Source: Escherichia coli
Lineage (GTDB): Bacteria > Pseudomonadota > Gammaproteobacteria > Enterobacterales > Enterobacteriaceae
Length of the DNA: 64,000 nucleotides
Direction: 5' to 3' (one strand)
Assembly (NCBI RefSeq): GCF_003334355.1
Contig: NZ_QOWP01000001.1
A program made the position numbers. This document shows positions 8,501 through 11,500 of this stretch, piece after piece. Position 1 is the first letter of the stretch. Each line of letters opens with the position of its first letter.

Positions 8501-11500
8501 CAATATGGGAAAAACCGACCGCAGCGCCAACCCTTCGCCGGGCAACAAGAAAGGCGGTCTGGCAAACGTGGTAGAGAAGGCACTCGGCTCCATTGCTAAA
8601 TCGGGTAAAAGCGCAATTGTTGAAGTGCTGTCGCCCGGTCAACGCCCGACTAAACGCGGATTAATTTACGCCGCGACGCCAGCCAGCGATTTTGTCTGTG
8701 GCACGCAACAGGTGGCTTCGGGTATCACAGTGCAAGTGTTTACGACCGGTCGTGGTACGCCGTACGGCCTGATGGCGGTACCCGTCATTAAAATGGCAAC
8801 CCGCACCGAGCTGGCGAACCGCTGGTTTGATTTAATGGATATTAATGCGGGCACCATCGCTACCGGCGAAGAAACTATTGAAGAGGTGGGCTGGAAGTTG
8901 TTCCACTTTATTCTCGACGTCGCCAGCGGGAAGAAGAAAACCTTCTCGGATCAATGGGGGCTGCATAACCAGCTGGCGGTGTTTAACCCGGCACCGGTGA
9001 CCTGATTTCTTTTGGAACGTCCCTCGCAAAACATGGCCTTAGTGCCATGTTTTTATTGTTTAAAGCCCCCACGTCCATTAATAATGCATTTGCATTACCT
9101 TAGTTCAAGCTTATAATTTGAGCAGAAAACAGGCTGTAAAAGGACAGTGAATCATGCCCGCTAATGCTCGCTCTCACGCTGTACTGACCACTGAATCAAA
9201 GGTCACGATACGCGGACAAACAACTATCCCCGCGCCAGTGCGTGAGGCCTTAAAACTGAAGCCAGGCCAGGACAGCATTCATTACGAAATTCTGCCTGGT
9301 GGGCAAGTCTTTATGTGCCGACTGGGAGATGAACAGGAGGATCATACTATGAATGCATTTTTGCGTTTTCTGGATGCAGATATCCAGAACAACCCGCAAA
9401 AAACTCGTCCATTCAACATTCAACAAGGAAAGAAACTTGTCGCTGGCATGGACGTCAACATTGATGATGAGATTGGCGACGACGAATAATGGATTTTCCA
9501 CAAAGGGTTAATGGTTGGGCGCTATATGCTCATCCCTGTTTTCAGGAAACCTACGATGCTTTAGTTGCCGAAGTCGAGGCATTAAAGGGAAAAGATCCTG
9601 AAAATTATCAGAGAAAAGCTGCCACAAAGTTATTGGCGGTGGTCCATAAAGTGATTGAGGAGCATATCACGGTCAATCCATCATCACCGGCATTCCGTCA
9701 TGGCAAGTCGTTAGGCTCTGGGAAAAATAAAGACTGGTCACGGGTAAAATTTGGTGCTGGTCGCTATCGTCTCTTCTTTCGTTACAGTGAAAAAGAGAAA
9801 GTCATCATTCTGGGATGGATGAACGATGAAAACACGCTGCGCACCTACGGTAAAAAAACAGATGCCTATACCGTATTCAGTAAAATGTTAAAAAGAGGAC
9901 ATCCTCCTGCCGACTGGGAAAGCCTCACCCAAGAGACAGAAGAAAACCATTGATGGTGTTCACAATGCCCGCCGAACGTATTCGTGTTGACCAGCGGGCA
10001 CCCTTTCTCACTCCCCGACCAGAATCACTTCAACCCCAGCCTTTCGCAGTCCTTCCAGACTATCCGCAGGAATGCCTTCATCAACAATGATCATGTCGAT
10101 ACGTTGAGTATCAATGATCTTATGTAAACTGGAACGATTGAACTTACTGGAATCGGTGACTACGATGATCCGTTCCGCAACTTCGCACATCCGGCGGTTT
10201 AAACGGGCTTCATCTTCATTATGCGTGCTGACGCCGCGCTCCAGATCGATCGCATCTACACCAAGAAACAGCATATCGAAGTGGTAATTTTGCAGCGATT
10301 GTTCAGCCTGATCGCCGTAAAAAGATTGCGACTGACGGCGCAAATGCCCGCCGGTCATCAGCAGCTCAACGCCTTCCGCTTCCAGCAAAGCATTAGCCAC
10401 GTTCATACCGTTGGTCATCGCAATTACGTCAGTGTGCTTGCGCATCAGACGAGCAATCTCAAAAGTGGTGGTCCCGGAATCGAGGATCACCCGATGACCT
10501 GGCTGAATCAACTCAACGGCAGCTTTCGCAACGCTGCGTTTCATCGCGGTGTTCAGTGCGCTTTTATCTTCCACTGATGGCTCGACTGACGGCGTCGTGC
10601 TATCGCAGATCAACGCGCCACCATAGGCACGCACAGCGATCCCCTGCTTTTCCAGAAACGCCAGATCGTTGCGGATCGTCACGGTAGATACGCCATACAA
10701 TGCCGACAGATCGTTAACCTGCACACTCCCTTGCTGTCGCAGACGCTGAATGATCTGTTCTCGTCGCTCGCTGGTGCCTGTCACTCGCTTCTCACCTGAA
10801 GCGTCGGTATTACTCATAGTAAGTCCTTTCGTAAAACTTTCGTTTCATTTCGTTTTGCCTATTAACGCCTTTCTATTAAGCAAATGCAAGCCCACCTTGC
10901 CCATTGACGCAAGCTACTCTCGTTTCAGTGACTTTCATTATGTTTCTTTTGTGAATCAGATCAGAAAACTACTGTCTTTCGTTTTATTTTTATCTCACCA
11001 TGACGCAGTATCAACTGAAACAAAACGAAAGATTAATATCGCAGTAATCTGAACTGGAGAGGAAAGTGAAACATCTAACAGAAATGGTGAGACAGCACAA
11101 AGCGGGCAAAACAAATGCAATTTATGCCGTTTGTTCCGCACATCCGCTGGTGCTGGAAGCTGCAATCCGCTACGCCAGTGCAAACCAAACGCCGTTACTG
11201 ATTGAAGCAACCTCCAATCAGGTAGACCAGTTCGGCGGTTATACCGGAATGACGCCCGCCGATTTTCGCGGCTTTGTTTGTCAGCTCGCCGACTCGTTGA
11301 ATTTCCCGCAGGATGCGTTGATTCTGGGTGGTGACCATCTGGGGCCAAACCGCTGGCAAAACCTGCCAGCCGCTCAGGCAATGGCCAATGCCGATGATTT
11401 GATTAAAAGCTACGTTGCGGCAGGATTCAAAAAAATCCACCTTGATTGCAGCATGTCCTGTCAGGACGATCCAATTCCCTTAACTGATGACATCGTGGCT

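Follow-up and report, generated by a model that had tools for sequence, protein, structure and literature searches.

A divergent agaR/kbaZ control region with four predicted AgaR operators in Escherichia coli

The agaR/kbaZ spacer and its operators

We analyzed a 64,000-nucleotide stretch of the Escherichia coli contig NZ_QOWP01000001.1 (assembly GCF_003334355.1), hereafter referred to as the window, with a focus on the spacer that separates the divergent genes agaR and kbaZ (also named agaZ). This spacer occupies positions 10818-11065 (248 bp) and has a GC content of 37%, as compared to 51% for the window. The coordinates and the flanking genes given in a preliminary description of this DNA proved to be exact: genome comparison revealed 99.9% identity between window bases 10000-12400 and E. 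coli HS, for which a RefSeq annotation exists. The Pfam domains HTH_DeoR (3.4e-21) and DeoRC (4.5e-55) are both present in the agaR product, and the regulator adjoining the spacer is thus a member of the DeoR/GlpR family. Judged by its sequence, the spacer holds four full AgaR operators, termed O1 to O4, of which three are direct and one is inverted (Table 1).

The operator unit spans ~24 nt and consists of T-rich repeats with TTTC cores that are 10 bp apart. For scanning, we used the 24-nt consensus WRMMTTTCRTTTYRTTTYNYTTKK, which reportedly stems from the study of Ray and Larson in 2004. With up to 3 mismatches, 6 matches were obtained in the 64 kb, compared to 0.2 expected, and all of them fall in the agaR/kbaZ and agaA/agaS spacers, which hold the control sequences for agaR, kbaZ, and agaS. 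O3 exceeds this threshold in the window, and its form in strain K-12 (5' TAT instead of TGT) has 3 mismatches by count.

Weight matrices were also built without this consensus, either from the three agaS-spacer sites alone or from the four agaR/kbaZ sites alone. The agaS-only matrix ranked O1 (4th), O4, and O2 4th to 6th and O3 10th among ~128,000 positions. With the agaR/kbaZ-only matrix, the three sites of the agaS spacer came 5th to 7th in the window. For each spacer, the best matches in the 64 kb outside the training set were therefore the sites of the other spacer.

The preliminary description had claimed that direct and inverted copies of a CTTTC/GAAAG-containing motif fill the spacer. 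On the plus strand, CTTTC starts at 10826, 10837, 10869, 10932, and 10976, and GAAAG, corresponding to the minus strand, at 11027 and 11062; six of these copies are wholly inside the spacer. Dinucleotide shuffles of the spacer contained 1.13 copies on average and 5 at most, with none of 5,000 shuffles reaching 6, and the Poisson probability of at least 6 copies at the window-wide CTTTC rate is 1.5e-4. When the 64 kb were scanned in 248-bp segments, 6-7 copies were found only in segments overlapping the agaR/kbaZ spacer; the next densest regions have 5 copies, and one of them is the agaA/agaS spacer. A repeat search returned a four-copy direct family on ACTTTCGTTTCATTTCGTTT as well as inverted pairs that are at most 93% complementary, including inverted repeats I1-I5 formed by O4 with O1-O3. 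Motif copies in both orientations are hence present, as repeat families and at the level of full sites. The wording that they fill the spacer was too strong, since the four operators cover ~96 of the 248 bp and the segment 10893-10928 is unconserved filler. Likewise, CTTTC holds as the core of ~20-24-nt sites, whereas the pentamer itself is not the recognized unit. The string quoted in that description, cctttcgtaaaactttcgtttcatttcgttttgcc, was located at 10825-10859.

As a separate observation, CTTTC is over-represented throughout the window (202 copies, as compared to 140 ± 12 in shuffles), and the long runs of CTTTC on a single strand hint at an effect of codons or of strand composition that has nothing to do with AgaR.

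Published data link one of these sites to AgaR. Guharajan et al. (2021; PMC8667592) list in their Table S3, under "AgaR, P_kbaZ", the 20-nt cloned binding sequence CTTTCGTTTCATTTTCGTTT, which conferred AgaR-dependent repression on a synthetic promoter when AgaR was titrated. The sequence CTTTCGTTTCATTTCGTTT, present at 10837-10855 in the window and in K-12 alike, equals this published site minus one T. A search with this 19-mer and up to 3 mismatches gave 4 matches, as compared to 0.02 expected. Furthermore, the spacer is identical to that of K-12 MG1655 at 245 of 248 bases, with the differences (10970, 10972, and 10974) lying outside the TTTC cores. The consensus matches, the DeoR domains, the near-identity to the K-12 spacer, and the published site uphold the earlier assignment of the motif to the AgaR operator type. 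Its recurrence upstream of agaS and, within the window and the orthologous loci, its density above background were also borne out.

Table 1. Genes, operators, and other elements of the agaR/kbaZ and agaA/agaS control regions, in window coordinates
Feature	Position	Strand	Sequence	Remarks
O1	10834-10857	+	AAACTTTCGTTTCATTTCGTTTTG	0 mismatches to 24-nt consensus; in 76/76 distinct spacers
O2	10929-10952	+	TGACTTTCATTATGTTTCTTTTGT	1 mismatch; in 74/76 spacers; 3' end overlaps CRP-like site
O3	10973-10996	+	TGTCTTTCGTTTTATTTTTATCTC	4 mismatches; in 75/76 spacers; overlaps predicted kbaZ -35
O4	11011-11034	-	AATCTTTCGTTTTGTTTCAGTTGA	3 mismatches; in 75/76 spacers; spans predicted kbaZ start
agaS-spacer site	16121-16144	+		3 mismatches
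agaS-spacer site	16280-16303	+		2 mismatches
agaS-spacer site	16358-16381	-		0 mismatches
agaS-spacer weaker match	16311-16334	+
CRP-like site	10947-10968		core TGTGAatcagaTCAGA	core 10950-10965, centre 10957.5
Predicted kbaZ -10	11006-11011	+	CAGTAT	GCAGTAT conserved; 29 bp after O3 core in 61 spacers
Predicted weak kbaZ -35	10983-10988	+	TTTATT	inside O3
Conserved block	10859-10892	-		candidate P_R and/or possible AgaR half-site
Filler	10893-10928			~36 bp between agaR- and kbaZ-proximal modules; unconserved sequence, constrained length
agaR Shine-Dalgarno	10825-10830	-	AAAGGA	reverse complement of 10818-10835 is TTTACGAAAGGACTTACT, followed by ATG
kbaZ Shine-Dalgarno	11056-11065	+	GGAGAGGAAA	nearly invariant; directly before GTG
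agaR	10008-10817	-		DeoR/GlpR-family repressor of aga regulon; ORF, HS RefSeq annotation, Pfam
kbaZ (agaZ)	11066-12346	+		GTG start; first gene of kbaZ-agaVWEF-agaA transcription unit; ORF, RefSeq annotation of HS region

Conservation of the spacer across Enterobacterales

We scanned one genome per species for the AgaR protein, which resulted in 80 loci with proteins of 81-99% identity. These loci belong to Escherichia, Salmonella, Citrobacter, Klebsiella, Enterobacter, Kluyvera, Raoultella, Kosakonia, and Buttiauxella, and furthermore to Yersinia, Serratia, Cedecea, Ewingella, Mixta, Pantoea, Phytobacter, and others. In each of the 81 loci that were fetched, kbaZ is divergently adjacent to agaR. 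Both gene starts could be placed in 76 loci, which together with the window provided 77 spacers (76 distinct).

The spacer is 245-251 bp long in 75 of the 77 cases. The alignment revealed as nearly invariant the four operators, the block at 10859-10892, the CRP-like core, the GCAGTAT at 11005-11011, and the two ribosome-binding sites. Operator columns are at least 95% identical, as compared to mostly 10-50% for the filler. Each operator has its own conserved variant, namely, CTTTCGTTTCATTTCG for O1, CTTTCATTATGTTTCTTTTG for O2, CTTTCGTTTTATTTTTA for O3, and CTTTCGTTTTGTTTCA for O4. Pooling 300 sites gave the consensus aatCTTTCgTTttnTTTcttTt, with an information content of ~29 bits, in which positions 4 and 8 carry a C at 98-99% and the TTT is conserved at 99-100%.

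The distances between these elements are similarly constant: O2 and the CRP core are 18 bp apart in all 75 spacers (75/75), O2 and O3 44 bp in 69 spacers, O3 and O4 41 bp in 62 spacers, and O1 and O2 95-98 bp in 70 of 75 spacers. Not every operator spacing is a whole multiple of 10.5 bp, and the distance between O1 and O2 differs from genus to genus by as much as 3 bp. In the orthologous loci, the consensus with up to 3 mismatches matched 197 times in 19.0 kb of spacer sequence, as compared to 4 matches in 478 kb of flanks, a ~1100-fold difference.

The four flank matches are located at L016 72-95 (minus strand), L023 66-89 (minus strand), L059 486-509 (plus strand), and L080 5976-5999 (plus strand), the L numbers denoting individual loci. 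Two of them, both in Salmonella, occupy corresponding places past kbaZ and may represent genuine AgaR sites belonging to a promoter further downstream.

Promoter elements, remaining CTTTC copies, and strain context

The core of the CRP-like site matches TGTGA-N6-TCACA at 9 of 10 positions. Its identification rests on its near-invariance, its fixed position, and the literature, not on the score of the core. An arrangement of CRP and repressor sites has been described for the aga cluster (PMC12226905). When CAGTAT is taken as the -10 element of P_Z, the promoter of kbaZ, transcription would start near A11018/11019, which would place the CRP centre at approximately -61, a class I position. On this predicted start, O4 would span from approximately -8 to +16 and O3 would cover the -35 element. 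The abstract of the 2004 study by Ray and Larson is said to report that the agaZ promoter depends on cAMP-CRP.

Several candidates exist for P_R, the promoter of agaR. A consensus promoter scan returned one minus-strand site, TTGATA-17-AAAAAT, with the -35 element at 11014-11009 and the -10 element at 10991-10986. When the hexamer criteria were relaxed and conservation was scored, several comparable agaR promoter candidates were obtained. One of them, TTGCAT-17-GTTAAT (-35 at 10889-10884, -10 at 10866-10861, minus strand), matches the consensus at 7 of 12 positions, with its -35 element present in 55 and its -10 element in 65 of the 77 spacers; as P_R, it would place O1 at approximately -4 to +21. 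Moreover, the operator-atypical ATTATG of O2 reads CATAAT on the agaR strand (10942-10937), a 5/6 match to a -10 element that occurs in 57 of the 77 spacers. An element of the agaR promoter could thus be embedded in this operator. Depending on the candidate, agaR transcription is predicted to start near 10854, 10930, or 10979 on the minus strand.

The conserved block at 10859-10892 gave no full operator match in the consensus and weight matrix scans. Its invariants across 17 genera comprise TATTAA, TTTC, and AA.GCAA columns; CCTTTCT and AATGCAAGC are likewise invariant. The lone conserved CTTTC at 10869-10873 is similar to the front half of an operator, reading CTTTCTTTTG in most genera, and lacks a second half.

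Two further CTTTC copies coincide with ribosome-binding sites. The copy at 10826-10830 corresponds, on the opposite strand, to the agaR Shine-Dalgarno sequence GAAAGGA, 7 nt before the ATG, and the string cctttcgtaaaactttcgtttcatttcgttttgcc therefore starts in the agaR ribosome-binding site; its first CTTTC is probably not an operator. In the orthologs, a CCTTT/TCCTT core is kept at this site and the flanks are not operator-like. The seventh copy (GAAAG at 11062-11066) lies within GGAGAGGAAAGTG, which covers the ribosome-binding site of kbaZ together with its start codon, and is probably no operator either. Both Shine-Dalgarno copies are out of register with every operator. We rejected a fifth operator at the repeat copy D1 (10916-10935), which has 8 mismatches by count and is conserved in Escherichia only. 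Two mechanically called ORFs, 10750-11052 (plus strand) and 10995-11381 (minus strand), were also set aside, as they overlap annotated genes and unconserved filler. A scan of 10600-11300 against Rfam (E ≤ 1) returned no match to a structured RNA or leader.

According to the RefSeq annotation of HS, kbaZ is followed by agaV, agaW, agaE, agaF, agaA, agaS, kbaY, agaBCD, and agaI. In the HS record, the RefSeq pipeline calls agaA "nagA" (N-acetylglucosamine-6-phosphate deacetylase); the gene is at 14928-16082 of the window and 14950-16083 of L001. The agaV-agaW-agaE-agaF-agaA segment is intact in the window (12333-16082), and the window strain thus has the complete set of N-acetylgalactosamine (GalNAc) genes. 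In K-12 MG1655 (L082 4218-5626), agaW and agaA are pseudogene fragments resulting from a known deletion. Directly downstream of agaR, and convergent with it, is the prlF-yhaV toxin-antitoxin pair (9154-9953), likewise present in HS and K-12.

The region 10000-12400 was matched over at least 80% of its length in 5,315 of 5,426 complete E. coli genomes, and ~2,300 of 5,322 E. coli records are at least 99% identical to the spacer of the window. The three substitutions relative to K-12 form a cluster on the 5' flank of O3, CTACTGT in the window versus CCATTAT in K-12. Because the K-12 form is common to most other genera, the window allele at 10970, 10972, and 10974 is derived.

Interpretation and comparison with known systems

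Considering these data, we are highly confident that the spacer represents the divergent control region already known for agaR (P_R) and kbaZ-agaVWEFA (P_Z), equipped with four AgaR operators. The AgaR operators of the K-12 aga regulon are reportedly described by Ray and Larson in 2004 (Mol Microbiol 51:813) and by Leyn et al. in 2012 (J Biol Chem 287:28047), K-12 being the strain that appears in the title of the former. The window carries the same locus as these described operators, not merely a similar one, and the region is in this sense already known: the locus, the genes, the motif, and the second location upstream of agaS are shared with K-12, and the operator cores are identical. Nothing substantive differs, the window having an intact agaW-agaE-agaF-agaA segment and the three substitutions on the O3 flank. 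The direct-repeat build of AgaR sites has also been described before ("in tandem ... repeat sequences"). Passages in PMC3668189 and PMC4694137 credit DNase I footprinting of AgaR to Ray and Larson (2004). AgaR is reported to control its own gene and, by binding directly, to repress agaZ and agaS (PMC4694137). Deletion of agaR rendered agaA and agaS constitutive, and GalNAc acts as an inducer of both P_Z and P_S (PMC3668189).

Several points weigh against this interpretation or its details. A text search of the literature found no paper containing the 24-nt consensus used for scanning, and support for this consensus comes from its exact matches in the two aga spacers. The operator coordinates are derived from sequence. 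The published 20-nt site carries one T more than the genome, reflecting either a typographical slip in Table S3 or a design change. Taken alone, the match of the CRP core is not above chance in the 64 kb, in which 2 such matches were found and 2.04 are expected. The start sites are predictions, and since at least three candidate hexamer pairs exist for agaR, it is uncertain which operator overlaps P_R. Looping, cooperativity, and the assignment of operators to promoters are likewise inferred.

Three other explanations were considered for the repeats. They might be bound by another regulator, such as a DeoR-family paralog or NagC, with AgaR acting elsewhere or indirectly; E. coli encodes numerous repressors of the DeoR type whose sites are T-rich or TTTC-like, and the predicted TagR operators CTTTCAAAATGAAAG likewise start with CTTTC (PMC12226905). 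However, the motif accompanies agaR in all 76 orthologous loci and apart from this is found at aga promoters only, the 20-nt version represses in a manner dependent on titrated AgaR (PMC8667592), and direct binding of AgaR to the aga promoter regions has been reported (PMC4694137, PMC3668189), which makes another regulator very improbable.

We regard as still less probable that the phased T-rich repeats have a mainly architectural role, through bending, UP-element-like A/T tracts, or the binding of H-NS or Fis. The low GC content of the spacer and the distance of about one helical turn between TTTC cores would fit such a role, whereas the shuffles, which preserve dinucleotides, never reach the observed number of CTTTC copies, and conservation is base-specific in the 300 pooled sites, with the filler drifting freely. 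That the copies cluster by chance or through base composition, without any function, has next to no probability, even though CTTTC is short and common in the window and 2 of the 7 local copies are ribosome-binding sites; the shuffles and the phylogenetic footprint refute this explanation, and the enrichment, the cross-validation between the two spacers, and the deep conservation weigh against it.

With the spacer understood as an AgaR control region, the following mechanism can be proposed. In the absence of inducer, AgaR would occupy O2, O3, and O4 and repress P_Z sterically at O3, covering the kbaZ -35 element, and at O4, covering the kbaZ start site. Bound to O2, which abuts or overlaps the CRP site, it may also hinder activation by cAMP-CRP from approximately -61, and binding at O1, beside agaR, would lead to autorepression of P_R. 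A phosphorylated pathway intermediate would release AgaR; the identity of this intermediate is unsettled in the literature. With one helical turn between them, the two TTTC cores of an operator would accommodate two helix-turn-helix domains lying on the same side of the double helix. A passage of PMC10991401, citing Ray and Larson, describes AgaR as a tetrameric member of the DeoR/GlpR family. A tetramer could hold two operators at once, either cooperatively or via a short loop; given the tetramer and the two cores per operator, AgaR binding is probably cooperative. A bolder proposal, which we consider possible but rather doubtful, is that AgaR tetramers bridge O1 and O2-O4 across the filler to form one looped unit that represses both promoters and excludes CRP. 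The nearly constant lengths of the spacer (245-251 bp in 75/77) and of the O1-O2 interval (95-98 bp in 70/75), as well as the distinct variant that each operator retains across the sampled genera, the ATTATG of O2 among them, point in this direction; no test of a looped complex of fixed geometry was found in the literature consulted.

Comparison with related systems places this arrangement in context. The GlpR and DeoR regions of E. coli are similar in having several operators, overlap with promoters, and co-regulation of a sugar-phosphate pathway by CRP, and the GlpR and DeoR operators are palindromic. The AgaR operator, in contrast, is composed of direct T-rich repeats, and the halves of the site are therefore arranged head-to-tail. 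Long-range looping is a feature of DeoR, whereas none is shown for AgaR in the literature found. All three systems rely on an oligomeric repressor of the DeoR/GlpR family (oligomeric states: PMC10991401). The TagR/tagO system of E. coli Nissle 1917 (PMC12226905) also has a divergent spacer between regulator and operon, a DeoR-family repressor, and predicted operators starting with CTTTC; a CRP site lies upstream, and one of the operators covers the start site. The authors remark on this likeness to the aga cluster. The system differs in its inducer, D-tagatose, in its regulator, and in having two predicted 19-nt operators (CTTTCAAAATGAAAG) that are unlike the AgaR sites internally. The Streptococcus "AgaR" (PMC5018945, PMC4694137) shares the name and the pathway, whereas it is an unrelated protein of the GntR family with palindromic operators.

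Beyond annotation, the significance of these findings is small, as this control region of the GalNAc/GalN regulon of E. coli has been characterized experimentally before; they confirm that a real operator array is recognizable from sequence alone. Modest additions are the base-level coordinates of the four operators and the recognition of two CTTTC copies as ribosome-binding sites. Mildly new is the rigid architecture, conserved from Escherichia to Yersinia and Serratia while the ~36-bp filler drifts. This architecture leaves room for a looped repression complex, which would be of modest interest if true.

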